Shown piece by piece: positions 1 to 48,768 of a DNA stretch of 64,000 bases. Source of the DNA: Nemertoderma westbladi (Eukaryota > Animalia > Xenacoelomorpha); NCBI GenBank assembly GCA_032718475.1, contig JAUCBJ010005720.1, forward strand, positions 1 through 64,000. The letters run 5' to 3'. The notes beneath the pieces were generated by a model. The model was not told the DNA's origin, searched no databases, and saw only the letters and a program-made list of their open reading frames with translations. Each line of letters opens with the position of its first letter. Position 1 is the stretch's first letter. Both the position numbers and the translations under genes were made by a program.

Positions 1-1827
1 AACAGCCAGACAACTATCCAGCCTACAAATTATCTAAATAAAATTATACGCTACCCGTACAGACTTACACAAACAAAGTACAGACTAAACGATGGCAGAC
101 CACTCTCAAGCCTAAATAAACCACAGGACATGCAGACTCCGAAATGATTAGGGAGTATGCGCTCTAACCCAGTAGTGCGACTTATTCTTTAGTTGGGGGA
201 TTACCTTACAGCGTTCGCTGCCCCTACTGCCTAATCGTACTTAATCGGACAAGTGCTCTACACACACTGCAATTCGTTCGGACCTAACAGCAATCAGACA
301 ACAGCTCAGCCTACAAATTGTCTGTCCAATCTGATCAGGTTTACACGCCTTCTGTTCAATACTGGCCTACAAACAAATAAAACTGACAGAAATAAGTAAG
401 CTCCAAAAGAAACAAGGGGTGTACAGTCCCTAATCTCTTAAACAGCCTACCGGTATACAACAATCAAATCGAATAATACTAGTGTACTTATACGGAAGTA
501 GGTACCGGTCCGGATGATCAGGCAGTCAGGCCTACTGGTTACCGGTCGACCGGTACTTTCGACTTTATTGCTTACTGCAATAAAGAAGCGATATCCTTTA
601 ATGTTCGCGCTTTCAGACCTTTGGCAGTTTAACCCACCAAATTAAGATGTCTTCTAGATATTAAATCTGCTTTTAGTCTATGACAAGTATTTGATTCACT
701 ACACTAGTCGAAACCAATCCGTGCGCGACCATTCACCCGCTGGATATTCCCGGGAGATTGGGTTCGACGGTTTAATTTTATTGCTATGTAAGCCTAATGT
801 ATTATTCGACTGACAGTATTATATAATCTCTGACAATATTATTCACCTTCGGTAATATTAACAGTTCCTTTAGGACGTGGCGCTTTATCTATATAAACAG
901 AGTTATGACTTAAACTACTCACAACGATATGGCTTAATTATAATTCACATATATGGCGCATTCTTTAGGAATTGCTTCTTTAACAGACTCACTCATACAC
1001 AATGCTGCACAATACTGCACACTAATCTGCCAATCTTCACTGATTTTAGTCACATATAAAAGGAACACAGGCTGACTCATGTAGGGTCTATCAAATAACA
1101 TTAGATTCACTTCAAACCACTTTAACATAAGTCACAATCGTTATTGGTAACCTTTCTCTCTTACCTTCGGTATATCAAGAATATTGGGTTGCGGGGTTAT
1201 TTATCGTTATTCCAAATATAATAATTCATCAACCATATTATGAAGAACTGACAGTAAATAGCAGTATAAAACAACAACTGAACAGTTAGGTATATCGGTA
1301 CATCAGTACCGGTATGTCAGCATTGAGATATTTACAGAGATATTCAAGTTAAAGGATATATGCCCTTTATAATTAAACCTACTAGTGTAAGACTAAAAAG
1401 CAGTACAGCACAAAATACTTCCAAGCCGTTCTTTCTTTGGCTCAAGACTGAATGTAAACACTGCACATAGGCATTGCGTCATTTCTCGGAAATTTTCTGT
1501 ACAAGGAGCCACAAAAACGCTCTCATTGGCTGACTGAACTGAGAGACGCCGTAGAACAAAGGAAATCAACACGTATGAATGTCAGCTGTTAACCGTAGTC
1601 ATAGTAACTACTGTTCAAGAGTAGCTATCACCCTTTTGCGTCACGAATTGCCATAGAATCATAAAATATGCCTTTCACAGTACACATACGGAGGAAATAG
1701 GTCTTAGATCCTCTAAAAACACCGATACAGCAATAATACGGTCTCTTACACTTATTAAATCAACTACAGAGTATTTTAATGTAAAAGATAATAAAAATAA
1801 CGGGGCAATTCAGCAAAGGCTTTTACA
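1..1827 (-). mobile_element. Copy C: 5' LTR (602-1827) plus start of the 5' leader of a BEL/Pao-type LTR element, nested in copy A and running off the window start
   Basis: Minus strand begins TGTAAAAGCC at 1827 and ends GCGCGAACA at 602, like the LTRs of A and B. 1-590 is homologous to the leader of A (10440-11000) and B (37800-38400). Confidence 0.85.
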
Positions 1828-4036: not shown

Positions 4037-7000
4037 TTACGTTGGGGAGTCCCTAGATGTTTGTTGGATTAGGGAGGTGGTCGTGGGAAGAGTATCTTGC
4101 CTTCCATAGTTTCCGGACAGTTCTCTGTCTCTTTCCAGTAAACATAAACGACCAACTGGGCGATTGAGTTGTTGTGTTTCGAATACAATTCCAGGTTTCC
4201 TCTTCGTCCTGGAATAGTGACGATAGAAACATCGCTTCAAATACACGACGGCCTTACAAAGCCGATTCCAGGATCTATAGTGGTCCATCGCTCCCGGCAG
4301 GAGAGGTGAGAGTCCCTGCGAGACGTCTGGTGTTCCAGATCTCCAGTCTCTCTCTCTGATCTCCACAACAGATCGGTTCGCGGTGGGGGAGTTTAGATCC
4401 ACAGCGTCGTCCCTGGAAATGTGTAGTACAGACAGATCTAGCACGGGTTTAAATAACCTTGATTTACTCGTCCGGGTTTTAGGTTTGACTTTCTCCGCTC
4501 CCTTGGCTTGTCTAATCTCAGACGTGGTAAGATGGGGAGGCCATTCATCTTCTTTACTTAGGAAGTCGGGTCCACCTAACCAGTCTGGAGTATCTGTCAG
4601 TTCTTGAGGAGTTGCTCCTCTGGAAGCGATGTCGGCTAGATTAATCGTCTCGGGGCAATGTCTCCATTGATCTACATTAGAGTTAATATCGTCATTATCT
4701 GAGGAGTATGGTGTTCCCTCAGTTGTGGTCGTCTCTCCCTCACTGATGTCTTCTTCCCATTCACTCTCCTGATGGACCTGATCTTTGGGTAGCCTTTCTA
4801 GGAGTGTCCTACGGGAAGGTCCAGTGAGGTACCAACCTACTCTTGTTCTTCCCGCATAGGTTTGCAATGGTTGCGGTCGAGCAGGCCGTTTCTCTAATGT
4901 CTCAAGCGCCTCATGCGCATTTTGGCCGATGAGTATCTGTACCCCTGGGTAGTCGGTGTTGAATCTAGGTATCTCATGCTGCTGGGTGAAATCGTCTTCA
5001 TCCCAGTTATAAGGTTCCACTTGGCTGGTAGCGAAGTTCTTTATCGCCACCATTTTTACTAACCTTATACTGTGTTCTCCTAGTTCATCCTGGGGGGTGG
5101 ACAACGCGCCTACATAGTAGTCTGTAGCTACTGTAGATTTCCAAACCTGCATAATTCCTGAAAGGTTCAACTTAGTTCGGAACTTGGGTTGTCCAGCAAA
5201 GATGTCTTCGGCTAGTTCTTTGTCGATGAATGTTCCTGTGCTGCCGGAGTCAAGGAGGGCGTTCACTATATAGCTCTTTTCTGGCCCGTGGACTCTCAAC
5301 TGCACTACGGGAAATTCTCGGATTCCTACGTTGGAAGTTGGTGCTTTCCAAGATGGTTGTCGGTCAGGAGTAGTTAGGGGGAGCTCACTGTCGGTTTCCT
5401 TTCTCATACGTAAGTGCTCGATACACTGCGGTATTTATTAAGTAACAGGATTCGTTTTCGTCGGAGAATTCATCCGTATAGAATCCTTCCATCTCAGAAC
5501 TTTGGTCAGTGTCGTTCACATCACTGAATTGGACATGTAGTTCGGGCTCACTTACCTGACTCGGGCTGTTTCTTTCGAATTCAGTGTGCAACAAGATATG
5601 ATGTTTCGCGCCGCACTTAGCACACCTTGCGTCGGAGTAACAGGTTCGCCGTTGGTGTCCTCGTCTGAGGCAATTATAACACAACCGCTTATCCCACATG
5701 ACTTCACGTCTATCTTTTAGTGATTTCTTTAAAAATTTATCACACACACTTAAACGGTGGGGCCCATCGCACAGCGCACATTTTGGTTTGATGTTACTCA
5801 CCTTACCTTGGGTAACGTTGTGCACTCTCGTTCTTTCCTCGGGCTTTCTTCCGTGAACTCTATTAGGAGACGTAGGAGGAGTTTTTGTTACCTGTTCTCT
5901 CCTGTCATTGGTTCGAGACTTAAATTTACTTACGTCTTTAGGCGCTTTGTTGACATAGTAAGATCTTTCAGTGTCTTTCCCGCTGTCCTCTTCTTGAGAA
6001 GCCTGGCTTTCGCCGTCGTCTGTATAACACACTGGTGTTACCTTTCTCCTAGAAACGGGTTTTCTCACTTACCTTATTTTCCGGTGTCTTCTCTCTGGAC
6101 TGCTTTAGGAGCTGTAATTTTACCTCTCCATCTAAGAATGACATGAGATCAGCCATGGTAGGGTCTCTTCGTTGTTGTTCCATCATATATAAGACTTTCT
6201 TGTCCCAGCGTGTACCTACTCCACCCTTTGGTAAAGTAGAGGCCACGGCTCCAATAACCATAGAACTCTGATATTCATGAGACTTACCTAGCCAATCTAA
6301 TTGTCTACAGATCTCCTGAATCTCATCGGAAAACTCTATAATCCCGCTGCTAATGAACTTTCGGGGCGCTACCAATTTTGCATACAAATACCTAGCTATG
6401 TTATTCCTATTACCATACCTGATGTTTAGTGTATCCCAAACTTGTCTTAATCCATCTGGATGTCCAATAAACTTTAACGCCATTAACTTGGGAGATCCTT
6501 CCAAGCACTCGATGAGGAATCTAAGTTTCTCTCCGTTAGATAGCACAGAGTTCTGTATGTTATCTTTGTAATATTCATTAAAAGGTAACCATTTCATCTC
6601 ATCTCCATTGAACTTGACGATCTCTCCCACCTTTACCGCTTGACGGGCTTCGGTTCTAGCCATTTGACGCGTAAAACTTTCTTGGGCCATCGTGTTATTT
6701 AATATCGAGTTATCGGTATATAAATTTCTCGGATTATGATCAGGTCTATATGGAATATCATTGTCAACAGGTTTATAATTACCCTTAATAGGGTTTACTA
6801 TAGGAGTTTCTACTTCACTAGCAGTATAGATGCGTGTAGGCTCCACACCTTGCGCATGAAATACTTCAGACCTAACAGGTTGACACATTGTTACCGGGGT
6901 TGGTGGTATACCCCTTTGGGTATTTACTAATTTATCGCGTTCTAACGCGATACTCTGCTGCACTTCTTGCAACTCTAACCTACTTTCCCTTACTGTGCCC

Positions 7001-8986
7001 TTGAACTGCTGAACAGTCTCCTGCATCTGCCCGAGCAGGAGATCCATCCCCCGCCGTCTCTCATCCACCCACTCGACCGCCGAAGCGGGAGCCGCCAACA
7101 TAGTAGCGGGTGGATGAGGGACAACGGGCGACAAATCATTGATATTTCGCTCGGAGTCCAGGACAGGAGCTGTCTCTGGGGCTGTTCTGCTGGGCACAGG
7201 TAGTTTAGTGCTATGCAAAGGGAATTTAGAGGTAGGTTCTGGGAGTACAGGTGTCTCTATCACTGAAGGGGTGGCTTCGAGAACAGGCCTAATTATTTCA
7301 GGCTCATCTACTATAGTAGGGAGTCTTGCTGCCCTAATAATTTGGTCTGTGGGTTCTGTACTACCTAAGTCTGTACTAGCTAGTTGCCTTCTAACAGCTG
7401 GGGGCAAATCAGGCAATTTCTGACGGTGGGGCATTCTTCTACGCCTGCTTAGACGAGATCTATTTCCTCCGCCTTCAGGATCGGTGGTATCGCCTTCATC
7501 AGATGATGTAAATCCCTGCCTTTTAGGAGTAGATCGACTTATCATCTGCATTTGACTAGCTGTTAACTGTTTATTTATGCCGTCTTGCTTCTCTTGAAGA
7601 TTTTCCAACTCTAGCTGGGTGGTCTCTTCAGACGCTCTCCGTTCTGCTTCTGCCACTGCCTCTGCCGCTTTTCTTTCCGCTTCTGCCGCTGCCACCTTTC
7701 TTTCAGCCTCTGCCTCTGCCGCTGCCGCTGCCGCTTTTCTTTCAGCCTCTGCCTCTGCCGCTGCCGCTGCCGCTTTTCTTACTACTTCTGCCGCTGCCGC
7801 TGCTGCTGTCTTTCTGTCTTCTATACGTTTTTTCTTTACTTGTTCTTCTTGGACTCTAGCGATGCGGAGGCGTTCATCAAATTTAGCTTGGTTCGCAGCT
7901 AACATTTCCACATCTATTGCGTCCAACACAAGCTTGGCTCCTTCACATTAGGGCGAAGTCCAGCCAGCTGTCTCCTCAACTCTTCATCACCTAGAAATCG
8001 TTGATAGTCTGACAGATAGATGTCAATAGCGTCCCTCGTCTGCGGTTTCTCTGCTGTCGCTTCGCTTTCCACTTGAGAAAAGGTAGCGTCTGTTGATTCT
8101 CCATGGGTTGAGCGCTCAGCAAGCTGAGATTTCCACTGGGCCGTTCCTTGAACCTTGAGACCCACCCGCTGGAACCAAGTCTTTACGGCAACTTGCAACG
8201 ACGTGTCTTGTCTTCTTTTCGAAGCTTCCTCAAAGGCCGATAAGATTAGTCTGATTCTTAGAATTCTTTTCGAACTTGATAAAACGGCTCTCCCTGCTCT
8301 TGAGGTCCTTGGGGTTGTTGAAACAGTTGTTCCTCTAATCGCTCCATAGAGCTGAAGAATCCCTGTACATATCCTGCTGCTGACCTCTTCCACACAGCTG
8401 GATCTCTAATGTCTTTTGTCACTCCCATCCTATGTGTGTCTTCCCAGGCAGCTTCCGATAGGTCAAACGGGAGTCCGGGTCCGGGGAAGTTCCATTGCGA
8501 CTCGACAATAGACTTCAGTTCCTCTCTTGGGTATCCCGCATAACTATCCTTGGTCGATCGCTTGTTTCTAGCCCAATCAATTTGGTGTTCCTCCACCGCA
8601 ATCAATACCCTAGTGAGTACGGCTGCAGGAAGAATGAGAAGGGGATCCGAATAAACAGCATCTGCCATCTTTGCTCCGCGCTCGGGTGGCAGCTCTACAG
8701 TATCCGAACTACTGGAGCTATCGGGCCGCTGAGAATTAAGTTCTCGGCTAGGGTGTTGCTGCTGTTTAACAGCTGCTTCCTGGTCCCGCTTGACCTGAGC
8801 CCGAGTGCCTATGATAGACCTACGGTGTTGGACTAGCCTAGGGTCTGATATCACTACTGGAGGGATGATCTTTCTCACAGTAGGAGGTGAGTTGAACTTC
8901 GGTCTCACACGTTCCACACTCCTGTCTGGGTCACAGATGGTTGTATCTAGGAGACTGTCTGACAGGTTTTGCTTTGTGTCAGACAT
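4037..8986 (-). pseudogene. BEL/Pao gag-aspartic protease polyprotein with RT/RNase H/integrase deleted, split by about four frameshifts
   Basis: Overlapping ORFs 8986-8258, 8393-7914, 7929-6049, 6068-5385 and 5407-4037. Gag core KFNGDEMKW...LSNGEKLRFLIECLEG, BEL triple zinc knuckle (CALCDGPH, CYNCLRRGH, CAKCGAKHH), protease ALLDSGS, remnants QWRHCP..NLADIASRG..W.GGPDFL and RPVGRLCLLE. Confidence 0.9.
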
Positions 8987-9122
8987 GTTTGTTTGTACAG
9001 TTGAATGCCTACTGCTATATTACAGTTAAAGCAAGTCTAGTAATTCAGTATCAACTGTCAGCCTAGTAATTAATTACCGATATCGTTACTCAGTGTAACG
9101 TGATATATATACACAATATATT

Positions 9123-9500: not shown

Positions 9501-11086
9501 TCAATTATTTTAGAATAATTGAATTTCTGAATTTTTAGGGTTACTTAGTTACTTTACTTTACTTTATTACCGTTATTTAAGCAGTAGTCCAACTGACATT
9601 AAGACCTAATTGTTGTATGACAGGCCTACTATTTTATAAATCGGTTTGAGTTGATTTATAATATATATACCCGTTTAATGGGTTTTTGTCAATATTTGAA
9701 ATAAATGTTATTATTTCTGGGAAAGAGTCACTGCACAGAAGCTGTACGCTCTCAGTGAAGTGCTACTTGTTGGACACTAAAACAAATAATTCTAATTTGC
9801 CTAAGTTACTTAATACTACAAATTACGTACAATACGGGGTGAGATTACAATCTCTAAATAAACATAAAATTTACACATACGAATTTTTAGGGGTAATTTT
9901 ACAAGAAGTCTACAAACCAGCCTAACAAGGGGTTAGAATTTCTGGTTATTACAACGGATAGGATACTACGGTATTTGAAAGGAATAAAGCAGTAGTAAAT
10001 ATACTGCATTGTCCAGATAGGAAAAATACCACCGTCTGACGACTTATAGCCGTAGCGCTATAAGTACTACGTTATGTATCATGGAGTGTTCCTACCTAGA
10101 AGTTAATTACCGCGGCCTACCAGAGCCAAAGTGCCTATTAACCACTTTACAACACAAATTTACTGCCTACACACTAATTACCTTCGGAAAGCACTGTACA
10201 CTAAACCCTAAATTAGGTACAAGTACTTATACAACAAATAACCAGCAGTTAAAATACTTGAACAGCTAAAAGAACCACGGTATCTGCCGGAGTGACCAAA
10301 GCATAAAATCTCCAGTCTTTACCTACGCCGAACAGCCCTGATGTAGTACTGGGGTTAATTTAACTATAACGGTATGTATAACAAGCACAATTACTGTAGG
10401 AATAAACTTGGGGTTTGTGAATGTTGCGAATAATCGCATAAACTCTGAATAATAAATATTACGCTACCCGTACAGACTACACAAACAAAATACAAACCAA
10501 ATGCTGGCAGACTACTATCAAGCCTAAATAAACTACAGTATATGCAGACTCCGAAATGGTTAGTTAGTATGCGTTCTAACCGAGTAGTGCGACTTATTCT
10601 TTCGGGGGGGTTTTACCTTACAGCACTGGAAGCCCCTACGTTCCTAACTAGTACTTTATCGGACATACACTCTACACACACAGCAATCTCTTCAGACTTA
10701 ACAACAGCTAGACAACAATCCAGCCTACAAATTATCTGTACAATCTGAGCAGGCTTACACGCCTTCTGTTCAATATTAACTTTCAAATAAATAAAACTGA
10801 CAGAAATAGGCCTAAGTAAAATCCCAATAAAAACCAGGCGTCCCCGATTAAATATTAAGACCTACCGGTATATAATTATCAAAATCGAATAATACTGCTG
10901 TACCTGTACTGCTGTAAGTACCGGTTCGGGTGGTTAGGCAGTCAGGCCTACTGGTTACCGGTCGACCGGTACTTCAGCTTTATTGCCTACGTTGCAATAC
11001 AGAAGCTATAACTGTTATTGTTCTTACCAGAACAATAGTAAACTGTATTTATTGCCTACACTGCAATCAGAATTAATAACTGTTAC

Positions 11087-12242
11087 TGTTCGCGCTTTTA
11101 AGACCTTTGGCAGTTTAACCCGCCAAATCTATATGTCTTCTAGGTTATAAATCGACTTTAGCCTATGACAAGTATTTGACACAAATAAATCCAACATTAG
11201 CCGAAGCCAGTCTATGCGCGACCATTCACCCGCTGGATATACCCGGGAGACTGGATTCGGATGCTTTAATTTGATTGCGGTGCAGGCCTACCGTACTATT
11301 CGATTGATCGTTAATATATAATCTCTGACAAATATCATTCACTTTCGGGAAATATTAGCAGTTCCTTTAGGACGTGGCGCTCTATCTATATAAACAGAGC
11401 TATGGCTTACGCTAAACACAACGGAATGGATTATAAGTTACACATAAGGCGCATTCTTTAGGAGATGCTTTGTTACGCGGACAAGCACATACAGACTATT
11501 GCACACCGCTGCACACTGAATTGCCGATAGTCACTGATTTTAATCATATATAAAGAGAATAGCAACCGACATTTGTAGGGCCTATAAAATAGCATTCAAT
11601 TCACTACAAACCACGATAATATAAGTCGCAATTGCTATATGTAACCGGTCTCTCTAACCTTAGTGTATCAAGAAGATCGGGGTTTCTGATCGTTTATCGT
11701 TATTCTCCAAATAACAATATGTAAACAACTGATACAATTAATAACAAACAGTAAATAGCAGTAAATAATGTGCAATACAGCAGTAGGTACCGTACCGTAC
11801 CGGTAACAGTTATGTGTTCTTATAATTAAAGTTGTTCTAATGTTGGAATAATTCAGAATAATTCCATAGCCGATGTTCTAGGCTCTGGAAAAACCAACAC
11901 ACTGAACCCTGTGAGCTGTTGCAGGTAGCTTTCAACACAAAGAGGAAAAACTCTCATTGGCAGAGCTCCATATTCCACAGATTCCACGAATGTCTAAATG
12001 CCGAACTATTCGGGTTTTTGCAGCCCTTAGCCAACACACAGGATGAATCACTCTGCTTGGTTGACCTTGCTCTGGTTGGTTGATCGAACAGAACAAAGAG
12101 GCCATACATACAGCAAATCAGCCAATCAGCCGGTAGCTTGCATCATTTGAGTTAGGGAGTTTTCTTTAGAGTATTTGAGCGCATTGAGGGAAACTGGATT
12201 GCGAAGCAAAAGGGCCAGTTATATCCCATAAAAGCTTTTACA
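11087..12242 (-). repeat. 5' LTR of copy A
   Basis: Reads TGTAAAAGCTTTT...AAAAGCGCGAACA on the minus strand. 11087-11830 is nearly identical to 37040-37789. Confidence 0.9.
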
Positions 12243-32400: not shown

Positions 32401-34041
32401 ATATGGGGTGGGACTAGAGAATGAGTTAACATTGTATGGAGTGGGACTAGAGAATGAGTTAACATTGTATGGAGTGGGACTGGAGAATGAGTTAACATTG
32501 TATGGGGTGGGACTGTAGAATGAGTTAATATTATATGGGGTGGGACTAGAGAATGAGCCCACATTGTATGGGTGGGACTGTGGAATGAGCCAACACTGTA
32601 TGGAGTGGGACTGGAGAATGAGTTAACATTGTATGGGGTGGGACTGTAGAATGAGTTAATATTATATGGGGTGGGACTAGAGAATGAGTTAACATTGTAT
32701 GGAGTGGGACTAGAGAATGAGTTAACATTGTATGGAGTGGGACTGGATAATGAGCCAACATTGTATGGAGTGGGATGGAGTGGGACTGTAGAATGAGTTA
32801 ACATTGTATGGAGTGGGACTAGGGAATGAGTTAACATTGTATGGAGTGGGACTAGAGAATGAGTTAACATTGTATGGAGTGGGACTGGATAATGAGCCAG
32901 CATTGTATGGAGTGGGATGGAGTGGGACTGGAGAATGAGTTAATATTATATGGGGTGGGACTAGAGAATGAGTTAACATTGTATGGAGTGGGACTAGAGA
33001 ATGAGTTAACATTGTATGGGGTGGGACTGTAGAATGAGTTAATATTATATGGGGTGGGACTAGAGAATGAGTTAACATTGTATGGAGTGGGACTATAGAA
33101 TGAGTTAACATTGTATGGGGTGGGACTGTAGAATGAGTTAATATTATATGGGGTGGGACTATAGAATGAGTTAACATTGTATGGAGTGGGACTAGAGAAT
33201 GAGTTAACATTGTATGGAGTGGGACTAGGGAATGAGTTAACATTGTATGGGGTGGGACTGTAGAATGAGTTAATATTATATGGGGTGGGACTAGAGAATG
33301 AGTTAACATTGTATGGAGTGGTCCTAGAGAATGAGTTAACATTGTATGGAGTGGGACTGGAGAATGAGTTAACATTGTATGGGGTGGGACTAGAGAATGA
33401 GCCAACACTGTATGGAGTGGGACTAGAGAATGAGTTAACATTGTATGGAGTGGGACTAGAGAATGAGTTAACATTGTATGGGGTGGGACTGTAGAATGAG
33501 TTAATATTATATGGGGTGGGACTAGAGAATGAGTTAACATTGTATGGAGTGGTCCTAGAGAATGAGTTAACATTGTATGGAGTGGGACTGGAGAATGAGT
33601 TAACATTGTATGGGGTGGGACTAGAGAATGAGGCAACACTGTATGGAGTGGGACTAGAGAATGAGTTAACATTGTATGGAGTGGGACTAGAGAATGAGTT
33701 AACATTGTATGGAGTGGGACTGGATAATGAGCCAACATTGTATGGAGTGGGACTGGAGAATGAGTTAATATTATATGGGGTGGGACTAGAGAATGAGTTA
33801 ACATTGTATGGAGTGGGACTAGAGAATGAGTTAACATTGTATGGAGTGGGACTGGAGAATGAGTTAACATTGCATGGAGTGGGACTAGAGAATGAGTTAA
33901 CATTGTATGGGCTGGGACTGTGGAATGAGCCAACACTGTATGGGGTGGGAATACTGGATAATGAGCCAACACTGTATGGGTGGGACTGTGGAATGAGCCA
34001 ACACTGTATGGAGTGGGACTGGATAATGAGCCAACACTGTA
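29490..34041. repeat. 33-bp minisatellite, about 137 copies, with a 1767-bp higher-order duplication
   Basis: Unit GAGAATGAGTTAACATTGTATGGAGTGGGACTA. Rare variants and derived ORFs recur at an offset of 1767. Confidence 0.97.
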
Positions 34042-34139
34042 TCGATCATGGGGTGTAATTCCTCACTGCCGTTGGGTGAGGGGGTGAACATAATGGGGGA
34101 TGTGTTCATTACTAGTAGTGATGGTAAGCTCACTCTAGT

Positions 34140-35007
34140 TTGTGTCCCCTTGTTTGGGATTTGGAACATTTCGAGGTGCCGACAAAGGAGAAATTCCGCT
34201 CGGTGGAAGACACGAAATCACAGAAGATGTTGGAACGAGATACTACCTTTGAAAATGGTCATTATTATGTCCCAATGTTATGGAGAGATAAACAAAAACC
34301 TCTTACACGTAACCTCACCCTAGCAATTAAAAGATTGCGATGGATAAAGACGAGATTGCGTAAAAATGCCAACGAATCGGAACAATTCCAAACAAAGATG
34401 GAAGAGTTCATCACCAAAGGAATAGGACAATATCTGACGGAGGAAGAAATATTGAATCCCGACCCCCAACAATATTATATTTCAACCCACTATGTTCTAG
34501 AAACTAATAAGAAAAATAAAGTGCAAGTGGTAATGGACGATGCAGTAATTTGGAAAGGCCATAGCCTAAACTCTGAACTAATGGCTGGACTTATTCAACA
34601 CGATAGTGACTGAGTCTAACCTGTTGCTTTCTGCTTAGACCTAGAAGCGATGTTCCATCAAGTCAAGGTATACCCAGAAGATGCCGTATCACAAACGATC
34701 TTATGGTACGATGGACAAGAGAAACCGAAATCCATAACAAATTCAAATGAATGCGAATATGTTCAGCGCCACTGATGCCCCACCTACAACGGCTTTCCCA
34801 CTCAAAATGACAGGAAGCAAAAACGCCCACAGATATCCTGCCAATGTAAATGGGACGATCCAAAAACCTTTTCTACGTGGACGATGGACTCACAGGCGAA
34901 ACTACCGTGAAGAAAGCGGTGCTGCTAGCGTATAATCTAATAGACTGTCTAAAAAGAGGAGGATTTAATGCAATCAAATTCCTATCCAACTCTCGACAAT
35001 TCCTTAA
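34140..35007 (+). pseudogene. Older BEL/Pao pol fragment 1 (pre-RT and RT)
   Basis: WDLEHF...SVED...GHYYVPMLWR...N...AIKRL, GHSLNSELMAG, NLFYVDDGL, GGFNAIKFLSNS, with stops and frameshifts. Confidence 0.85.
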
Positions 35008-36508
35008 CCCTATTAATCCCGGGGGGGGGGGGGGGGGTCAATATGACCCCCCCGTGGTTTTATTATTATAATTCTGAAACAAACGCAGTTGGGAATCTGA
35101 AATTTTATGATTTTTCCTAAAAATCTATTGTCTTCCTAGTAGTGAAAACCGTTTGCAAAAATATTGGGTAGTTTTCGAGTTATAGCACCATTTTTTAACC
35201 CTACTTTTGGCACTTTTTTTTGAGACGTTTTTTGAAAATTACTTTTCATTAAATATGAATTGTAACATCTCTATGTTTGAATTACACCGGTTTTTTGGTG
35301 TTAGCAATTGGATGGAATTCATATAAATTGATTTAGAAATTTCAAACTTGTTTTTTTCGGTGGGTGCCAAATTTTGGTGCCAGAACTAAATTTTGAAATA
35401 TGTCAATTTTGAAAATTGATTGTTTGAAACTTGTTTTTTACGCAATTGGGGTTTTTTGGGGTTCTCGTTTCGATGAAATATATACGAGTTGCACCAAGCG
35501 TATAAAACTTGTATTTTTCGGTGCTGTGTGCAATTTTTGGTGCTAGCACGAAATTTTGAAAATCCATTCAATAGATAAAATTGCTTGTGACATTTTATTT
35601 CTTGCGTTTTAGAGGTTTATGGCTGTTCTGAATTCAATGGAATATATAATTATCGAACTAGACATCTCAAACTTGTATTTTTCGGAAGTGGGTGCAAAAT
35701 GTGGTGCTAGCACCAAATTTTGAAAATCATCAAATATATCAATTGATTGTGTCACCTTGTTTCTTGCGTTATACGGGTTTGTGAGGGTTCTGAATTCAAT
35801 GGAATCAGTAAAAATTTCATAAGAGTTTTCAGACTTGTATTTTTCGCAAAAATTTTGGAAAATAAGCAAATTGATCAGTAGATAGTATCATCTTGATTCT
35901 TGTGTTATACGGGTTTATACTGGACATCGCAAACTTGTAATTTTTGGTGATGGGTACGAAATTTGGTGCTAGCACCAAAATTTGCCAAATTACACCGAAA
36001 AATACAAGTATCAATGATCTGGCATATTAGAAATGTATTCCATTAGAATCATCAGCGCCCTAGAAAACCTATAAATGTGAATTTATAGCATCGTATAAGT
36101 GAATGAAAAATTTTGTGTTCTACCTGAAAAGTGCTGGTTACTTGTTTTTTTCATTTTTTTCCTACGCAGAGACGACTAAACAGCCCTTTATAGTAATCAT
36201 ATCATTTTTAAATATTTTCCAATGTATTTTGCGCCCCAGAAAACCTGTATTGAAAAACAATTAGCCGAAAATGTAACTTTCAAATTTTGTGAAAATTGTG
36301 CACTACTTGTAATTTTGGTGCTGCAATATAACCACCCCAGTACATTTTTTCGAAATTTTTTTTTTTCGGTCGGATCCAGACTACTGATACCTACGTACAA
36401 ACAAAAAATCAGACGTTTTCGTAAAAATTTGTAGATTTTAGAGGGGTGGGGTCAATATGACCCCCTCCCGGTATTTGTACAACATTTTATAGCCCGGTAC
36501 TAATAGGG
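35008..36508. mobile_element. Non-autonomous piggyBac-type DNA transposon (1501 bp)
   Basis: TTAA|CCCTATTAATCCCGGG ... CCCGGTACTAATAGGG|TTAA, with subterminal GGGGTCAATATGACCCC at both ends. Removal restores the pol frame RQFLN-NTPTDKV. Confidence 0.88.
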
Positions 36509-36512
36509 TTAA

Positions 36513-36603
36513 CAACACACCAACAGACAAAGTTGCGAAAGGAGTCCTAGATCTGGATTTGGGTGAAATGCTGTTGACAAGAGCATTGGGAGTAAAATGG
36601 TGG
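36513..36603 (+). pseudogene. Older BEL/Pao pol fragment 2
   Basis: NTPTDKVAKGVLDLDLGEMLLTRALGVKWW, which continues as PEEDTITI at 48774. Confidence 0.8.
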
Positions 36604-37789
36604 TGTAAAGGCTTTTCCGGAATTGGCCGGTTATTTTCCCCGTAAAGTACTCTGTAGTTGGTTTAACAGGCATAAAAGGCCGTGTCCCACTGTACTGGTG
36701 TTTTAGAGGACATAAAAGTAATTTCTTCTGTACGTGTACTTTAGCGGACATAATCCACAATTCTATGACGCAAAAGCCGAAATACTCTTGAAACAGTGTA
36801 GTTAGTATGACGACAGCTAATAGCTGAGCTGTACACGTGGAGCCTCTGCACGGAGCCTTGGTTCTTTGTTCTGCTCAGCTCAAATGACGACATCTATCAG
36901 CTGTGTCCACGTCAGTTCGACCAATCAGAGATTTTCCCTTTGTGTAAAAGCTGTACAGCAGAATCCCATGATTCAGTACTGACGTTTCCCCCACGCCTAA
37001 GAACACCGGCCGTGGAATGTTTTCTAACATTAGAGCGTCTTTAATTATAAGAACACATAACTGTTACCGGCACGGTACAGCGGTACGAGACACTAAGAAC
37101 ACATAACGGTACGGTACGTATTGCACATTATTTACTGCTATTTGCTGTTTGTTATTAAATGTATCATTCGTTTGCTTATTGTTATTTGGAGAATAACTAT
37201 AAACGATCAGAAACCCCGATCTTCTTGATACACTAAGGTTAGAGAGACCGGCTACATATAGCAATTGCGACTTATATTATCGTGGTTTGTAGTGAATTGA
37301 ATGCTATTTTATAGGCCCTACAAATGTCGGTTGCTATTCTCTTTATATATGATTAAAATCAGTGACTATCGGCAATTCAGTGTGCAGCGGTGTGCAATAG
37401 TAACAAAGCATCTCCTAAAGAATGCGCCTTATGTGTAACTTATAATCCATTCCGTTGTGTTTAGTGTAAGCCATAGCTCTGTTTATATAGATAGAGCGCC
37501 ACGTCCTAAAGGAACTGCTAATATTTCCCGAAAGTGAATAATATTTGTCAGAGATTATATATTAACGATCAATCGAATAGTACGGTAGGCCTGCACCGCA
37601 ATCAAATTAAAGCATCCGAATCCAGTCTCCCGGGTATATCCAGCGGGTGAATGGTCGCGCATAGACTGGCTTCGGCTAATGTTGGATTTATTTGTCTCAA
37701 ATACTTGTCATAGGCTAAAGTCAATTTATAACCTAGAAGACATATAGATTTGGCGGGTTAAACTGCCAAAGGTCTTAAAAGCGCGAACA
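36604..37789 (+). repeat. 5' LTR of copy B
   Basis: Near-identical to 47560-48768 apart from a few substitutions and 20-bp and 3-bp indels. Confidence 0.95.
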
Positions 37790-37800
37790 GTAACAGTTAT
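37790..37800 (+). promoter_or_regulatory. Non-tRNA primer-binding site GTAACAGTTAT, complementary to LTR 37057-37067
   Basis: Directly abuts the LTR end and lacks TGG. An exact reverse complement lies within the LTR. Equivalent pairs are 11076-11086/11803-11813 (A) and 591-601/1349-1359 (C). Confidence 0.75.
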
Positions 37801-38071
37801 AGCTTCTTGATTGTGGCGTAAGCAATCAAGTTGATAGTACCGGTCGACCGGTAACCAGTAGGCCTGACTACCTGATCATCCGGACCGGTACTTACAGCAG
37901 TATAGGTACATCAGTATTATTTCGATTGTGATATATTGTATATTTTAGGCTCTTAGGGGATTAGGGATTGATCACCCCTTATTCCTTTGTATGGTTTACT
38001 TATTTCTGTCAGTTTTATTTACTAGTAGGCTAATATTGAGCAGAAGACGTGTAAACCTGCTCAGATTGTAC

Positions 38072-38640
38072 AGATAATTTGTAGGCTGGACTGTTGTCTA
38101 ACTGTTGTTAAGTCTGAACGGATTGCAGTGTGTGTAGAGCATCTGTCCGATAAAGTGCTAGTTAGGAACGTAGGGGCTTCAAGTGCTGTGAGGTAAACCC
38201 CCTTTGAAAGAATAAGTCGTACTACTAGGTTAGAACGCATACTAACTAATCATTTCGGAGTCTGCATATACTGTAGTTTATTTAGGCTTGATAGTAGTCT
38301 GCCATCGTTTGGTCTGTACTTTGTTTGTGTAGTCTGTACGGGTAGCGTATAATTTTTATTTAGATAATTTGTAGGCTGGATAGTTGTCTGGCTGTTGTTG
38401 AGTCTGAGGAGATTTCGGTGTGTGTAGAGTGTATGTCCGATAAAGTGCCAGTTGGGAACGTAGGGGCTTCCAGTGCTGTGAGGTAAACCCCCTCTGAAAG
38501 AATAAGTCGTACTACTAGGTTAGAACGCATACTAACTAACCATTTTGGAGTCTGCATATACCGTAGTTTGTTTGGGCTTGATAGTAGTCTGTCAGTATTT
38601 GGTCTGCATTTTGTTTGAGTAGTCTGTACGCGTAGCGTAA
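38072..38640 (+). repeat. About 290-bp tandem duplication in the leader of copy B
   Basis: AGATAATTTGTAGGCTGG...GTAGCGTA occurs twice. It is also doubled in C (junction near 30-45) but single in A. Confidence 0.8.
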
Positions 38641-39960
38641 TATTTATTATTCAGAGTTTATGCGATTATTCGCAACATTCATTCCCCAAGTTTATTCCTA
38701 CAGTAATTGTGCTTGTTATATATACCGTTACAGTTAAACTAACCCCGGTACTACATCAGGGCTGCTTGGCGTAGGTAAAGACTGGTGATTTTGTGCACCG
38801 GTCACTCCAGCAGATACCGTGGTTCTTTTGGCTGTTCAAGTATTTTAACTACTGATTATTTGTTATATAAGTACTTGTACCTAATTTAGGGTTTGGTGTA
38901 CAGTGCTTTCCGAAGGTGATTAGTGTGTGGGCAGTATATTTGTGTTGTAAAGTGGTTAATAGGCACGTTGGTTCTGGTAGACCGCGGTAATTAACTTCTG
39001 GGTAGGAACACTCTGTGATACATAACGTAGTACTTATAGCGATACGGCTATAAGTCGTCAGATGGTGGTATTTTCCTATCTGGACAACGCAGTATATTTA
39101 CTACTACTTATTATTTTCAAATACCGTAGTACCCTGTCCGTTGTAATAACCAGATATTCTAACCCTTTGTTAGGCTGGTTTGTAGACTTCTTGTAAAATT
39201 ACCCTAAAAATTCGTACTTGTAAATTTTTGTGTTTATTTAGAGATTGTAATCTCAACCCGAATTGTACGTAATTTGTAGTATTAAGTAACTTAGGTTAAA
39301 TTAGAATTATTTGTTTTAGTGTCCAACAAGTAGCACTCCACTGAGAGCGCACAGCTTCTGTGTAGTGACTCCCCCCAGAAATAATAACATTTATTTCAAA
39401 TATTGACAAAACCCATTTTAACGGGTATATATATATTATAAATCAACTCAAACGATTTATAAATAGTAGGCCTGCCATACATCAATTAGGTCTAAATGTC
39501 AGTTGGACTACTGCTTAAATAGCGGTAATAAAGTAAGTTAAAGTAACCAAGTAACCCCTGAAATTTCAGAAATTCAATTATTCTAAAATAATTGACATAC
39601 CGGTATTTACAATCGGCTTATTATATTTATTTCTATAAATTTAGGCTGAAATTATACCGGTATTCTGTAATTAATATTAATTCTAGTCTGTAATTATACT
39701 TATATATATACATTATAAGTGTAAGCTGTATACCGGTATTCACGATAGGCCTATTATATATTTATAAATTTAGGCTGAAATTATACCGGTATTCTGTAAT
39801 TAATTCTAGTTAATAATTATACTTATATATACTATAGGTGTAAACTGCATACCGGTATTCACGATAGGCCTATTATATATTTATATATACTTGTGCTGAA
39901 AGTACATACCGGTATTCTGTGACAAATCTAGTCTGTGACAATACTTATATATATATTTCT

Positions 39961-42900
39961 CAATGGCCCGACAGCTCCAGTAGTGAGGATACTGTAGAGC
40001 TGACACCCGAGCGCGGAGCAAAGATGACGGATGCGGTTTATTCGGATCCCCATCTCATCCTTCCTGCGGCCGTACTCACTAGGTTATTGATTGCGGTGGA
40101 AGAACACCAGATCGATTGGGCGAGAAGTAAGCGATCGACTAAAGATAGTTATGCGGGATATACAAGGGAAGAACTGAAGTCTATTGTCGAGTCGCAATGG
40201 AACTTCCCCGGACCCGGACTCCCGTTTGATTTATCAGAAGCTGCCTGGGAAGATATACACAGGATGGGAGTAACCAAGGAAACCGTCGATCCAGCTGTGT
40301 GGAAGAGGTCCGCAGCCGGATACGTACAGGGATTCGTAAGCTCTATGGAGCGAGTAGAAAAACAACTGTTTCAACAACCCCAAGGACCTCAAGAGCAGGG
40401 ACAACTGCTTTATCAAGTTAGAGAAAGAATTCTACGAATCAGGCTAATCTTATCAGCCTTTGAGGAGGCTTCTAAAAGAAGACAAGACACGTCGTTGCAA
40501 GTTGCCGTAAAGACTTGGTTTCAACGGGTGAGCCTCAGGGTGCAGGGAACGACTCAGTGGAAAGCCCAACTGGATGAGCGCTCAACCCATGGAGAATCAA
40601 CAGACGCTACTTTTTCCCAAGTGGAAAGTGAAGCGACAGCAGAGAAGCCGCATAAGAGGGATGCCATTGACATCTATCTGTCGGACTATCAACGTTTTGT
40701 AGGAGATGAAGAGTTGAGGAGAAGACTAGAGGGGCTTAGCCCTAATAGTGAAGGAGCCCAGCGTGTGTTGGACGCAATCGATGTGGATAGGTTAGCTGCG
40801 AACCAAGCTAAATTCAATGAAAGCATCCTCATCGCTAAGGTTCAAGAAGAACAAGTAAAGAAAAAACGTATAGAAGACAGAAAGATAGCAGCAGTGGCAG
40901 CAGCAGTGGCAGCGGCAGAAGCGGAAAGAAAGGCTGTAGAAGTGGAAAGAAAAGCAGCCGAAGTGGAAAGAAAAGCGGCAGCGGCAGTGGCAGAAGCAGA
41001 ACGAAAGGCGTCTGAAGAGACTGTCCAACTAGAGTTGGAAAATCTTCAAGAGAAGCAAGACAACTTTAATAAACAGTTAAAAGCTAGTAATATGCAGATG
41101 ATGAATCGATCTACTCCCAAGAGGCAAGGTTATACATCAAGGCGATACCACAGATCATGAAGGCGGAGGAAATCAATCTCGCCTAAGCAGACGTAAAAGA
41201 ATGTCCCACCGTGAGAAATTGCCTGATTTGCCCCCAGCTGTTCGAAGGCAACTAAATAACACAAATTTAGGTAGTACAGAACCCACAGACCAAATAATTA
41301 AAATAGAAAGACTCCCTACTATAGTAGATGAGCCTGAAATAATTAGGCCTGTTCTTGAAATCACCCCTTCGGTGATAGAAACGCCTGTACTCCCAGAACC
41401 TACCTTTAAATTCCCTTTATACAGCACCAAATTATCTGTGCCTAGAGGAACAGCCCCTGAAACAGTGTCGGTCCTGGACTCCGAGCGAAATATAAAGGAT
41501 ATATCGCCCGTAGTCCCTCGTCTGCCCGCTACGACGTTGGCGGATCCTGCTTCGGCGGTTGATTGGGTAGACGAGAGACGGCGGGGGATGGATATTCTCC
41601 TCGGAAAGATGGAGGAGAATCGAGTGCGCTCCTCCCAACAGGTCCGAGAGTTAGAAGGGACTGTTCAACAGTTAAAGGGAACCGTAAAGGAAAGTAGGTT
41701 AGAGTTGCAAGAAGTGCAGCAAAGTATCGCGCTAGAACGCGATAAATTAGTAAATTTACAAAAGGGTATACCACCACCCCCGGTAACAATGTGTCAACCT
41801 GTTAGGTCTGAAGTATCTCATGCGCAAGGTGTGGAGCCTACACGCATATATACTGCTAGCGAAGTAGAAACTCCTATAGTGAACCCTATTAAGGGTAATT
41901 ATAGACATGTTGATAATGATATTCCCTATAGACCTGATCATAATCCGAGAAATTTATATACCGATACCTCGATATTAAATAACTCGATGGCCCAAGAAAG
42001 TTTTACGCGTCAAATGGCTAGAACCGAAGCCCGGCAAGAGGTAAAGGTGGGAGAGATCGTCAAGTTCAATGGAGATGAGATGAAATGGTTACCTTTTAAT
42101 GAATATTACAAAGATAACATACAGAACTCTGTACTATCTAATGGAGAGAAACTTAGATTCCTCATCGAGTGCTTGGAAGGATCTCCCAAGTTAATGGCGT
42201 TAAAGTTTATTGGACATCCAGACGGATTAAGACAAGTTTGGGATACCCTAAACATCAGGTATGGTAATAGGACTAACATAGCTAGGTATTTATATGCGAA
42301 ATTAATGGCGCCCCGAAAGTTTCTTAGCAGCGGGATTATAGAGTTTTCTGACGATATTCAGGAGATCTGTAGACAACTAGATTGGTTAGGTAAGTCTCAT
42401 GAATACCAGAATTCTATGGTTGTAGGAGCCTTAGCATCTACTTTGCCCAAGGGTGGAGTAGGTACACGCTGGGATAAGAAAGTGTTATATATGATGGAAC
42501 AACAACGACGAGACCCTACCATGGCTGATCTCATGTCATTCTTAGATGGAGAAGTGAAATTACAGCTCCTAAGGCAGTCCAGAGAGAAGACACCAGAAAA
42601 CAAGGTAAGTGAGAAACCCGTTTCTAGGAGAAGGGTAATACCAGTGTGTTATACCGACGACAGCGAAAGCCAGGCTTCTCAAGAGGAAGACAGCGGGAAA
42701 GACACTGAAAGATCTTACTATGACAACAAAGCGACTAAGGACGTAAGTAAATTCAAGTCTCGAACCAATGACAGGAGAGAACAAGTAAGAAAAACTCCTC
42801 CTACGTCTCCTAAGAGAATTCAAGTAAGAAAGCCCGAAGAAAGAACGAGTGTGCACAACGTTACTCAAAGTAAGGTAAGTAACATCAAACCAAAATGTGT

Positions 42901-44326
42901 GCTGTGCGACGGGCCCCACCGTTTGAATATGTGTGATAAATTCCTAAAGAAATCATTAAAGGATAGACGTGAAGTCATGTGGGATAAGCGGTTGTGTTAT
43001 AATTGCCTCAGACGAGGACACCAACGGCGAACCTGTTACTCCGACGCAAGGTGTGCAAAGTGCAGCGCAAAACATCATATCTTGTTGCACACGGAATTCG
43101 AACGAAACAGCCCGAGTCAGGTAAGTGAGTCCGAACTACATGTCCAATTCAGTGATGTGAACGACACTGACCAATATTCTGAGATGGAAGGATCCTATTC
43201 GGACGAATTCTCCGACGAAAACGAATCCTGTTACCTGACAAATACCGCAGTGTATCGAGCACTTACGTATGAAAAGGACACCGACAGCGACCTCACCCTA
43301 ACTACTTCTGATCGACAACCATATTGGAAAGCGCCACCTTCCAATGTAGGAATCCGAGAATTTCCTGTAGTACAGGTAAGGGTCCCTGGACCTAAAAGGA
43401 GTTATATAGTGAACGCCCTCCTTGACTCCGGTAGCACAGGAACATTCATCGACAAAGAACTAGCCGAAGACATCTTTGCTGGACAACCCAAGTTCCGAAC
43501 TAAGCTAAACATGTCAGGAATTATGCAGGTTTGGAAATCTATCGTAATAGCGGATTATTATGTAGGCGCGTTGTCCACCCCCCAGGATGAACTAGGAGAA
43601 TACAGCATAAGGTCAGTAAAAATGGTAGCGATAAAGAACTTCGCGACCAGCCAAGTGGAACCTTATAACTGGGATGAGGACGATTTCACCCAGCAGTTTG
43701 GAATACCTAGATTCAACACCGATTACCCTGGAGTCCAAATACTCATCGGTCAAAATGCGCATGAAGCGCTCGAGACATTGGAGAAACGGCCTGCTCAACC
43801 GCAACCTCTGCAAGTTTATGCGGGAAGAACTAGAGTAGGTTGGTACTTTACTGGCCCTTCTCGTAGAACTCTTATGGAAAGATTACCAAAAGAACAGGTA
43901 TATCAATTAAGTGAACGGGAAGTGGAGAGCAGTGAAGTTGACGACCCAACTGAGGGAACACCATACTCCTCAGATAATGACGACATCAACTCCAATGTAG
44001 ATCAATGGAGACATTGTCCCGAGACGATCAATCTAGCCGACATCGCTTCCAGAGGAGCAACTCCTCAAGAACTTACAGATACTCCAGACCGGTTAGGTGG
44101 ACCCGACTTCCTAAGTAAAGAAGATGAATGGCCTCCTCATCTTACCCCGGTGAAGATTAGACAGGCCAAGGGAGCGGAGAAAGTAACACAACCACTCAAT
44201 CGCCCAGCTGGTCGTTTCTGTTTACCGGAAAGAGACCGAAAACTGTCCGGAAACTATGGAAGGCAAGATACTCTTCCCACGACCACCTCCCTAATCCAAC
44301 AAATATCTAGGGACTCCATAACGTAA
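39961..44326 (+). pseudogene. BEL/Pao gag-protease of copy B (start deleted, one frameshift near 41140, 1041-aa open C-terminal part)
   Basis: Same gag, zinc-knuckle and DSG motifs as A. An 8-nt loss relative to A (TCTGATGA) shifts the frame. The N-terminal MSDTKQ segment of A is absent. Confidence 0.9.
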
Positions 44327-45960
44327 CAACATACGGAGTGGGTGTGTGACTATATTATTTTATATTTATTTTATTATTTTATATTATGTATGTATTATTA
44401 TGTAATTTTATTATAATCGTTTTATTTAATTTTATTCAGTAGAATGTTATTTTAGCGATTATTTAGTAGATTAGTGCAATATATTCGTGTTTATTACGTA
44501 ATTACTTATATTATATATTTAGTGCGACGGCGAGAAATAATTCTTTTTCTCTTTCCTTACTGCCCGTATTACATTACGAATACGTAACTATAGTAAAATG
44601 AAATGTCTGTACTTATTAAAGTACAATAAAGCCACTACTATATTCAAGTATTATTGGTAGGCAGAGTATTAGGAATGCAAAGTTCAGATCCTCGTGTCTC
44701 GGCTAAACCAAGCTCTGTGTAGACCTTGGAAACGACTTGCCTCTTCTCACTGACATTGCTTCGTGCGATATTGCTCTCATACCATATATAATAATACATA
44801 TAGTAGCGTGATATCCCTATAACAGTAGCGTAAAACGCAAATAAATCTGTTAAACCTTTGACCATCTGTAACTCTAGTCGATTAAGATATCGCGGCACCC
44901 ACCGATATACTTGAAAGACAAATTTTAGAATCAGTGGTTAACGTCCCCAGACAAGTTCTGGAATAAACCGGTGCCCATCCTAAATATTAATTATTAATAT
45001 TTACAAAATCTGTCAAATTTTAGATCCTTTAACATTCTAGTCGATTAAGATATCGTAGCACTTACCGATACTCTTAAAAGGACAAATCCCTAGAATCAAG
45101 GATCCCAGTCCCCAGACTTGTTCTGGAATAAAATTGTGTCTATTTAATATTAAATAATAAAATTACGGGAATAAATTTAATTTCATCTTTTAATGAATTT
45201 GATAAATTGTTATTTTATACAATTTATAATATTCCCAAAATTCCATTAATTAATAGATCATGGGAGCGGAGATTCACCTCTTAAGTGTATTAATGTGCGA
45301 GAATCTCCAATATAGAGTCAATAGCCGATAAAATTCATAAAATCATATATAAAGATGATATTGACCATTAAAGACTTACTATTAAATAGCATCCCAGATC
45401 TGTATGCATGGGAATTACCCTAATTCTACCGCTAGCTTTCCATAATGTCACCATAGTAACAGCCACGCTAGAATTAGAAGTGAGTTAAAAGAACAATAAA
45501 AAGCTTGCCCATTGAATAGCATACGGAATAAATAGCACACCGCTAGTATCCAAGGATACATAATAACAACGTGACATTCTGGAAGGCACTTGACTAACGG
45601 ACAAATGACCCGAATGTGTGATAGAATGTGTACCATTTGTGACAGTTACGTGGAATTTGTGCGTTTGTAGTTGAATGTTACTACTAAGGTGTGTTTACAG
45701 TAGCGAGTCGCAATTGTGAAAGTAGCCCTAACTCTCCAGTAAGAACCTGAAGTATATCTAAGCCTTTGGGACGGACGGTGGAGTGACTTGTGCTGGTTGT
45801 TGTAGTCGTTGTGCAGCTACGACGTTGGCGATAGGCACATCGACGAAAGTACACCAGCGCTGAGGATCTTGCACTGTCCGGGGGAAGAGAGGGGCAGGCA
45901 GCAACGCCCGCTAGCCTAAATATAAACTCATTATAATATTAATAAACTCATATAGCAGAT

Positions 45961-46955: not shown

Positions 46956-47559
46956 TATTAGCCCATCCTACCTAGCCGGATTGGGACGCGGACATTTAAT
47001 ATCGCCGTTTAACCCTTACTATCGTCCCGGCTTAACACGATATAACCTGTCACCAAAGTGGCGGAGAGCGTTGTACCAAATGAGTTAGACGCTATTCTAC
47101 AAAGATCAGAAAAGGAACTTACGCTTGTTCAGATAAACGTAAATTGCACTAGCAAGTCCAAGCGGTAAACAAAGTAACTATATCTCAGTTCGATCGGGAA
47201 ATCCAGAATCTCTAAGAAGTTATCGAACTTGGACGATCCTATTCTCTGCGAGAGTTTTTGGATGAACGTATCCAGCTACGAGCGGAGGAAAATCAGCTCG
47301 AGGAGAAGCATATCGAAACGGCGGATACCTCGACCATAATCCTACACCTTCTGATGCAATCATATTGCCCCCTTCACCCAGGAGTTATGGCCCTCCTAGT
47401 AAAGTGGCTCCCCCCAAAGAGAAAAGGACTCTTGCTAGCCTCAAAAAACTGCGTAAACGCCGTCTGCGTAAGAAAGGCTAACTGTTTAGAGTATTTTTAT
47501 ATTTTAGAAACTGTGATTTGTTATATTTTATAGACTTAAATCCCATTTTCTGGGAGCGG

Positions 47560-48768
47560 TGTAAAGGCTTTTGCGGAATTGGCTGGTTATTTTCCCCGTA
47601 AAGTACTCTGTAGTTGGTTTAACAGGCATAAAAGGCCGTGTCCTACTGTACTGGTGTTTTAGAGGACATAAAAGTAATTTCTTCTGTACGTGTACTTTAG
47701 CGGACATAATCCACAATTCTATGATGCAAAAGCCGAAATACTCTTGAAACAGTGTAGTTACTATGACGATAGCTAATAGCTGAGCTGTACACGTGGAGCC
47801 TCTGCACGGAGCCTTGGTTCTTTGTCCTGCTCAGCTTAAATGACGACATCTATCAGCTGTGTCCACGTCAGTTCGACCAATCAGAGATTTTCCCTTTGTG
47901 TAAAAGCTGTACAGCAGAATCCCATGATTCAGTACTGACGTTTCCCCCACGCCTAAGAACACCGGCCGTGGAATGTTTTCTAACATTAGAGCGTCTTTAA
48001 TTATAAGAACACATAACTGTTACCGGCACGGTACAGCGGTACGAGACACTAAGAACACATAACGGTACGGTACGTATTGCACATTATTTACTGCTATTTG
48101 CTGTTTGTTATTAAATGTATCATTCGTTTGCATATTGTTATTTGGAGAATAACTATAAACGATCAGAAACCCCGATCTTCTTGATACACTAAGGTTAGAG
48201 AGACCGGCTACATATAGCAATTGCGACTTATATTATCGTGGTTTGTAGTGAATTGAATGCTATTTTATAGGCCCTACAAATGTCGGTTGCTATTCTCTTT
48301 ATATATGATTAAAATCAGTGACTATCGGCAATTCAGTGTGCAGCGGTGTGCAATAGTCTGTATGTGCTTGTCCGCGTAACAAAGCATCTCCTAAAGAATG
48401 CGCCTTATGTGTAACTTATAATCCATTCCGTTGTGTTTAGTGTAAGCCATAGCTCTGTTTATATAGATAGAGCGCCACGTCCTAAAGGAACTGCTAATAT
48501 TTCCCGAAAGTGAATAATATTTGTCAGAGATTATATATTAACGATCAATCGAATAGTACGGTAGGCCTGCACCGCAATCAAATTAAAGCATCCGAATCCA
48601 GTCTCCCGGGTATATCCAGCGGCGGGTGAATGGTCGCGCATAGACTGGCTTCGGCTAATGTTGGATTTATTTGTCTCAAATACTTGTCATAGGCTAAAGT
48701 CAATTTATAACCTAGAAGACATATAGATTTGGCGGGTTAAACTGCCAAAGGTCTTAAAAGCGCGAACA
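47560..48768 (+). repeat. 3' LTR of copy B
   Basis: Direct repeat of 36604-37789, followed by the TSD. Confidence 0.95.

Follow-up and report, generated by a model that had tools for sequence, protein, structure and literature searches.

Three LTR retrotransposon copies (A, B and C) in the 64,000-nt stretch of Nemertoderma westbladi DNA analyzed here (the window) have primer-binding sites (PBSs) that are exact reverse complements of an 11-mer inside their own LTRs. This complementarity, its position, its co-variation between copies and its recurrence in related elements are real. Taking the analysis as a whole, we think it probable that the three copies prime minus-strand DNA synthesis with their own RNA, in a geometry like that of Tf1, and not with a tRNA. 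That the primer is derived from the element itself, in whatever geometry, appears very likely. The initial annotation had proposed that self-priming arose independently in a BEL/Pao lineage; our results support self-priming, but it is probably not local to this family and appears to belong to a wider clade.

The 11-mer occupies a homologous LTR position in the three copies, and the longest perfect match between 11-mer and PBS is 11 nt in each of them (Table 1). The pairs in A and B are exact, as first reported, and the PBS begins at offset 0 after the terminal ACA of the LTR in all three copies, so that it adjoins the LTR end as priming requires. C differs from A and B at 4 of the 11 bases, in the 11-mer and the PBS alike, and every change is matched on the other side, which bears out the compensated changes described earlier. 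Because A and B carry an identical 11-mer, the window holds one independent contrast and not three. Both variants of the 11-mer open with ATA after a pyrimidine, and the match ends at that A in 3/3 copies. The cognate pairs have pairing energies of -11.7 and -10.3 kcal/mol, while the 11-mer of A/B combined with the PBS of C, or the reverse, gives about 0 kcal/mol. The conserved TTTAATTATAA lies upstream of the 11-mer by 6 nt in A and B and by 7 nt in C, in agreement with the spacing noted initially. The absence of a TGG-type PBS behind the three 5' LTRs was also confirmed, as no TGG occurs in the first 24 nt after the 5' LTR of A, B or C.

Table 1. Positions of the features of elements A, B and C in the window.
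Feature	Position	Strand	Remark
Element B, complete non-autonomous BEL/Pao insertion	36604-48768	+	
B 5' LTR, TGT...ACA, 1186 nt	36604..37789	+	
B AT-rich conserved motif adjoining the 11-mer upstream	37040..37056	+	candidate core-promoter element
B LTR 11-mer, predicted self-primer	37057..37067	+	exact complement of PBS
B LTR arm, outer LTR-leader helix	37557..37583	+	predicted partner 37914-37936
B LTR arm, helix 3' of PBS	37589..37610	+	predicted B core 37596-37605 with 37807-37816
B LTR arm, U5-end helix	37655..37660	+	predicted partner 37781-37786
B PBS, non-TGG, offset 0	37790..37800	+	exact complement of 11-mer
Leader 16-nt perfect palindrome	37838..37853	+	same in A, B and C
B gag (DUF1759, triple Cys-His box), protease, RNase H C-terminal remnant	39868..44326	+	two overlapping frames
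Purine-rich tract, likely PPT	47552..47559	+	offset 0 to B 3' LTR
B 3' LTR, 1209 nt	47560..48768	+	11-mer at 48013-48023
A 5' LTR, 1156 nt	11087..12242	-	
A LTR 11-mer, identical to that of B	11803..11813	-	exact complement
A PBS, identical to that of B	11076..11086	-	exact complement
A leader, second PBS-like copy, 10/11	11008..11018	-	lies in duplicated leader stretch
A gag-protease-RNase H remnant	4037..9019	-	several broken frames
C 5' LTR, 1226 nt	602..1827	-	inserted in the 3' interior of A
C LTR 11-mer, 4/11 bases unlike A/B	1349..1359	-	exact complement
C PBS	591..601	-	exact complement of C 11-mer

Chance was rejected as the origin of the complement. An exact complement arose in only 1/3000 (B) and 2/3000 (C) dinucleotide-shuffled LTRs. 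Within two stretches of the window (1-20200 and 34100-57000), 7 of 1638 11-mers that follow ACA have an exact complement within 1200 nt upstream, and 3 of these 7 are the PBSs; the frequency is thus 4/1635 for other 11-mers and 3/3 at LTR ends. Duplications after the 11-mer and in the leader of A indicate that template slips occur locally, and the complement could on this ground have arisen by chance or as a side effect of LTR-leader template switching or gene conversion, with no role in priming. We consider this very improbable indeed, since the complement sits exactly at the primer-binding spot and recurs with different letters across a clade at <40% protein identity, and since the element would be left without any primer. 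In B, 14 nt around the start of the 11-mer are repeated 46 nt further on (37048-37107), with the primer broken in the repeat. No part of the LTR is richer in indels than the zone that follows the 11-mer, and this also holds in contigs of DNA runs. The contigs of four DNA runs revealed a very high-copy and variable family; among the 40 rows listed there was no change inside the 11-mer or the PBS, in contigs too short to link both. Metagenome, viral and genome contigs gave 0 matches to a conserved LTR motif of 22 nt. There are no tRNA genes in the 64-kb window and no Rfam match over 36500-40000.

B is flanked by the target duplication GGTGG (36599-36603 and 48769-48773), and its 5' and 3' LTRs are identical at 1177 of 1186 aligned bases. 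Eight of the nine substitutions between them fall in the 453-nt U3-like part (36604-37056 versus 47560-48012) and one in the other 733 nt, a spread that is uneven for simple ageing. A lies on the minus strand and runs from its 5' LTR down to position 1828, where the 5' LTR of C starts. Between A and B, identity is 98.7% in the final 640 nt of the LTR and about 71% in U3; their gag-protease regions are about 88% identical. This mosaic may result from jumps of strong-stop DNA between co-packaged RNAs; a similar mosaic is reported for Tf1/Tf2 and Tosmo in the accessible part of 10.1101/2022.12.06.519325. The palindrome shared by the three leaders is possibly a dimerization signal.

Both A and B lack the same stretch of reverse transcriptase (RT), and integrase is absent; in B, RT, most of RNase H and integrase are missing. 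The remaining proteins are of BEL/Pao type. PF03564 was matched with E values of 5e-12 (B) and 1e-11 (A), tblastn placed the protease and the RNase H C-terminus on A and B, and three knuckles could be read in the triple Cys-His box, in the pattern found in the accessible text of PMC554778. All homologues were BEL/Pao-type polyproteins or pieces thereof, at low identity, and 12/12 and 7/7 matches carried PF03564 and/or PF05380. We found no close protein relative, with the best 150 matches at 25-40% identity, and viral contigs yielded no relative. Further BEL/Pao traits are the TG...CA LTRs, a likely PPT and, in B, the target-site duplication; the 18-nt tRNA PBS is absent. Judged from these sequences, the classification as BEL/Pao rests on the proteins and not on the PBS. 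The BEL/Pao identity claimed earlier stands on proteins for A and B, and for C, of whose interior the window includes only 601 nt, on LTR and leader homology only. Membership in the Tf1/sushi group (Ty3/gypsy chromoviruses) was rejected, as the proteins of A and B are BEL/Pao. B also has a 149-codon open frame (46093-46542, +) with no Pfam match, which lies beyond the point where C cuts A.

B sits inside an older, broken BEL element, D (34128-35020 and 48769-51434, +, with pieces to 53608), which has RT, RNase H and integrase and is interrupted by B and by a 1.5-kb insert with inverted ends (about 35010-36510). D was considered as the helper of the window copies and rejected, because its similarity to them in the RNase H motif region is only distant. 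The window yielded no helper element. A 213-codon frame (52178-52819, +) resembles a Gag N-terminus by eye, with no Pfam match and no LTR located. Exons of a sodium:neurotransmitter symporter (PF00209) lie at 19272-19649 and 24563-24961 (+), with a 32-bp minisatellite between them, and long tandem arrays occupy 20274-24539, 25092-26355, 29507-34042 and 57191-64000, with periods of 32, 55, 33 and 55.

Self-priming of Tf1 needs a duplex between primer and PBS plus two PBS-flanking duplexes with the LTR downstream of the primer, according to the accessible part of 10.1101/2022.12.06.519325. Helices at comparable places are predicted for the window copies. The outer LTR-leader helix has pair probabilities of 0.81-0.99 in B, a homologous helix is predicted in A and C, and in every copy most of its segments have a probability >0.75. 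At the U5 end, A, B and C agree in the best partner of the helix, which lies 110-140 nt upstream of the LTR end; this helix is weak when taken singly, with shuffles reaching it in 20/200 (A), 23/200 (B) and 15/200 (C). In A and B, the predicted partner of the leader 3' of the PBS is an LTR segment about 175-200 nt upstream of the LTR end. This leader helix has -27.9 kcal/mol in A (0/200 shuffles) and is reached by 14/200 shuffles in B; in C the homologous pairing (-16.0) ranks slightly below another site (-16.9; 47/200), and a local hairpin wins. By eye, two double changes that separate A from C, one from C-G to A-U and one from C-G to U-A, leave the leader helix paired. Of 13 relatives tested, only 1 has a significant leader helix. 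Unconstrained folding placed the 11-mer on the PBS with a probability of about 0.98 in C, 0.19 in B and 0 in A, a pseudoknot being beyond the model of this folding. The predicted flanking helices, of which only the leader helix of A is significant singly, would fit the Tf1 'pretzel', short of proof.

The LTR arm of the helix 3' of the PBS overlaps an ATTAAA poly(A)-like signal (37606-37611). The leader arm at 37805-37831 can pair either with the LTR beside this signal or as one arm of a local hairpin, and both partners change along with the arm between B and C. The alternative pairing is possibly a switch that would mask the 5' poly(A) signal.

Relatives were sampled via homologues of the window's own protein. 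With an alignment of six homologues as the query, we obtained 78 metagenome loci (from the best 80 of at least 477 confirmed stretches) and 8 genome-collection loci. L079-L086 are BEL/Pao elements in records titled bacterial genomes and are likely host DNA binned there. The 5' LTR end could be located from the terminal repeat at 16 loci, several of them near-duplicates. In 14 of these 16 the PBS pairs over 11-15 nt with the exon-exon junction of a GT...AG intron in the LTR, a split match that was found in 0/200 shuffles for 12 loci, 3/200 for L079 and 2/200 for L080. L033 and L057 had no match; in L033, one LTR contains the donor context and the other LTR the acceptor that fits it. In L057, as in L050 and L051, TGG follows one base after the LTR and no self-match was detected, and these three may form a lineage that is primed by tRNA and sits within a self-priming group. 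When 72 of the 86 loci were scanned more broadly, with no null, the outcome was 29 split matches, 11 contiguous matches and 32 loci with no match, many of the latter for want of LTR sequence. Among the contiguous cases, L041, L042, L044 and L054 have an 11-12 nt LTR complement of the PBS that we judged real by eye; they may come from copies that lack the intron or from assembled spliced RNA. Inspection by eye led us to discount the contiguous matches of L017, L027, L037, L068, L076, L081 and L085 as probably due to chance, the scan having no shuffled control.

From the split loci we hand-picked 21, one per family (L010, L011, L016, L019, L020, L023, L024, L029, L030, L034, L039, L045, L052, L056, L061-L063, L065, L073, L079 and L083). 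Their PBSs pair only with the exon-exon joint of an LTR intron, which is of the GT...AG type and 74-451 nt long. The most common pairing length is 11 nt (10/21), the exon-1 part measures 3-9 nt, and the predicted primer ends with AC in 19/21, as in A/B. Going by sequence, we predict that the primers of these 21 loci are built by splicing. The initial annotation had pointed to related elements as the place to look for PBS/LTR complementarity, and there the same relation is kept with different letters.

The 11-mer of the window copies is contiguous in all 4 LTRs. The best split match in these copies is only 8 nt and there is no GTRAG donor within 190 nt of the 11-mer, and an intron or splice site at this position was rejected, as none was detected. 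In trees based on Gag, protease and the RNase H remnant (442 columns), the window protein is sister to the clade of the relatives and apart from insect elements, both in a quick tree of 50 rows (99) and in a careful tree of 36 rows from which 14 near-duplicate or unlabelled rows had been dropped (100/99); its branch is long (1.9). The primer of the window copies is probably the intron-less form of a primer that is mostly split by an intron in the wider BEL/Pao clade. The predicted splice-built primer is the most surprising part of the analysis, and it is a feature of the relatives, not of the window copies.

Helices that flank the PBS also occur in tRNA-primed elements, which counts for a host RNA (a tRNA half or another small RNA) as the primer, with the LTR 11-mer acting as a structural decoy that masks the PBS. 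Half-tRNA primers with a non-TGG PBS are known in copia lineages, according to the accessible text of PMC6317226 and PMC5445492. This explanation needs two host RNAs, one for A/B and one for C, plus about twenty for the relatives, and each of them must match its own LTR exactly, mostly across a splice junction. We therefore regard priming by a host RNA as quite improbable.

The chief doubt about a Tf1-like primer is the start site of transcription. With a TATA-like hexamer that starts just 11-12 nt before the 11-mer, the start site is one that we infer; a true TATA box there would make transcription begin downstream of the primer. The AT-rich motif adjoining the 11-mer is too close to it for a -30 TATA box. 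The last 12 nt of this motif agree at 11/12 with the equivalent position of L063 and L065; of 38,572 background positions, one attains this level. The match is suggestive only, since L063 and L065 share one subclade whose other members match at 7-8/12. Further up, a conserved CCAAT lies about 130 nt and an Inr-like CAGT about 80 nt upstream of the 11-mer. TATA[AT]A is absent at -35..-22 from all 21 relatives, and with a transcription start at the primer their predicted first exon would have only the 3-9 nt of the exon-1 part. These promoter features favor a primer that is derived from the element and is not the 5' end of its RNA, with transcription starting elsewhere. If the start were further upstream, the 11-mer would be internal and would be cut out or left on a longer 5' piece; if it were downstream, as the TATA rule has it, the primer would come from the 3' LTR copy, a dimer partner RNA or an LTR-derived small RNA. 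Such a primer predicts the co-variation equally well. However, the match breaks off at one and the same A in both variants, for which run-off copying of a primer whose 5' end is fixed offers a simple explanation, and pairing extended upstream of the 11-mer is no better than in shuffles (275-366/1000). Weighing both sides, we find the upstream and downstream versions together rather unlikely. The abrupt stop shared by the two variants favors a primer whose 5' end is fixed, as in the Tf1-like geometry.

In this Tf1-like geometry, the genomic RNA would begin at or near the first A of the 11-mer, the U5 and leader helices would hold the PBS open, and the 11-mer would pair with it. RNase H of the RT of a helper element, acting in trans, would cut after base 11, and RT would extend the 3' end of the primer straight into U5. 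During plus-strand synthesis the primer would be copied back into the PBS; we propose that this re-copying makes the PBS track changes in the LTR. In the wider clade, splicing would join both halves of the primer, and reverse transcription would then depend on the host spliceosome.

The initial annotation had named Tf1/sushi as the known case of self-priming. It is described there, but it is not confined to that group, as it is also predicted for plant Tcn1 and copia TAR elements in the accessible text of PMC6317226; further descriptions are found in the accessible parts of PMC4600332 and PMC5341516. The window copies share with Tf1/Tf2 of S. pombe, Tj1, Tosmo and the Tf1/sushi and Tcn1 groups a PBS complementary to their own LTR, duplexes on both sides of the PBS (here predicted) and a divergent U3 that ends near the primer. 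They differ from these groups in their BEL/Pao Gag, protease and RNase H remnant, in their animal host, in a 1.2-kb LTR that places the primer about 730-760 nt from the PBS, in an RT that must come in trans for A and B, in a start and cleavage that we infer here, and in having relatives that split the primer with an intron. The primer of Tf1 is 11 nt long. The 11-mer of A/B opens with ATAAC, the first five bases of the Tf1 PBS sequence as given in the accessible text of PMC11042837, and that of C does not.

Canonical BEL/Pao elements (Belpaoviridae, Semotivirus) have an 18-nt PBS for tRNA-Arg or tRNA-Gly, and the ICTV profile agrees with the earlier statement that they are generally described as tRNA-primed (PMC8742986). 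The window copies share with them the DUF1759 Gag, the triple Cys-His box, the LLDSG protease, the Pao-type RNase H C-terminal motif, the TGT...ACA LTRs and the 5-bp target duplication, but have an 11-nt self-complementary PBS without TGG, and A and B lack RT and integrase. For the plant copia TAR elements (Houba, Osr-1), self-priming was likewise predicted from LTR/PBS complementarity alone, as far as the accessible text of PMC6317226 goes; these elements belong to another superfamily and another kingdom. Fungal GalEa copia and bivalve biv-TRIM elements also lack a tRNA-type PBS and have a hairpin 3' of the LTR. In the accessible text of the respective papers, the authors found no LTR complement of the site in GalEa (PMC5445492) and proposed no mechanism for biv-TRIM (PMC6934838), whereas the complement in the window is exact. 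BEL/Pao replication has been called 'poorly understood' (PMC8742986). Our literature search, with subscription papers, Repbase, GyDB and supplements outside its scope, found no report of self-priming in BEL/Pao, in line with the initial annotation, which knew of none, and the accessible text of PMC3118150, PMC554778, PMC8220671, PMC3286476 and PMC13524379 does not mention it. The search also found no paper on intron-split priming.

Overall, we lean towards a history in which a deep animal BEL/Pao clade swapped tRNA priming for a self-primer that is mostly built by splicing, while the sister lineage in the window has a ready-made primer, after intron loss or before intron gain, and rose to high copy number as a parasite that keeps only Gag and protease and depends on a helper RT. 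More than one origin of self-priming is predicted, as the TAR case indicates, and BEL/Pao would add a third LTR superfamily to those with tRNA-independent priming and, in the literature searched, a first animal case outside Ty3/gypsy. Self-priming would explain why PBS finders fail on these elements and may place them beyond the reach of silencing by tRNA fragments. With intron-split and intron-less forms side by side, the origin of self-priming could be compared within one clade.
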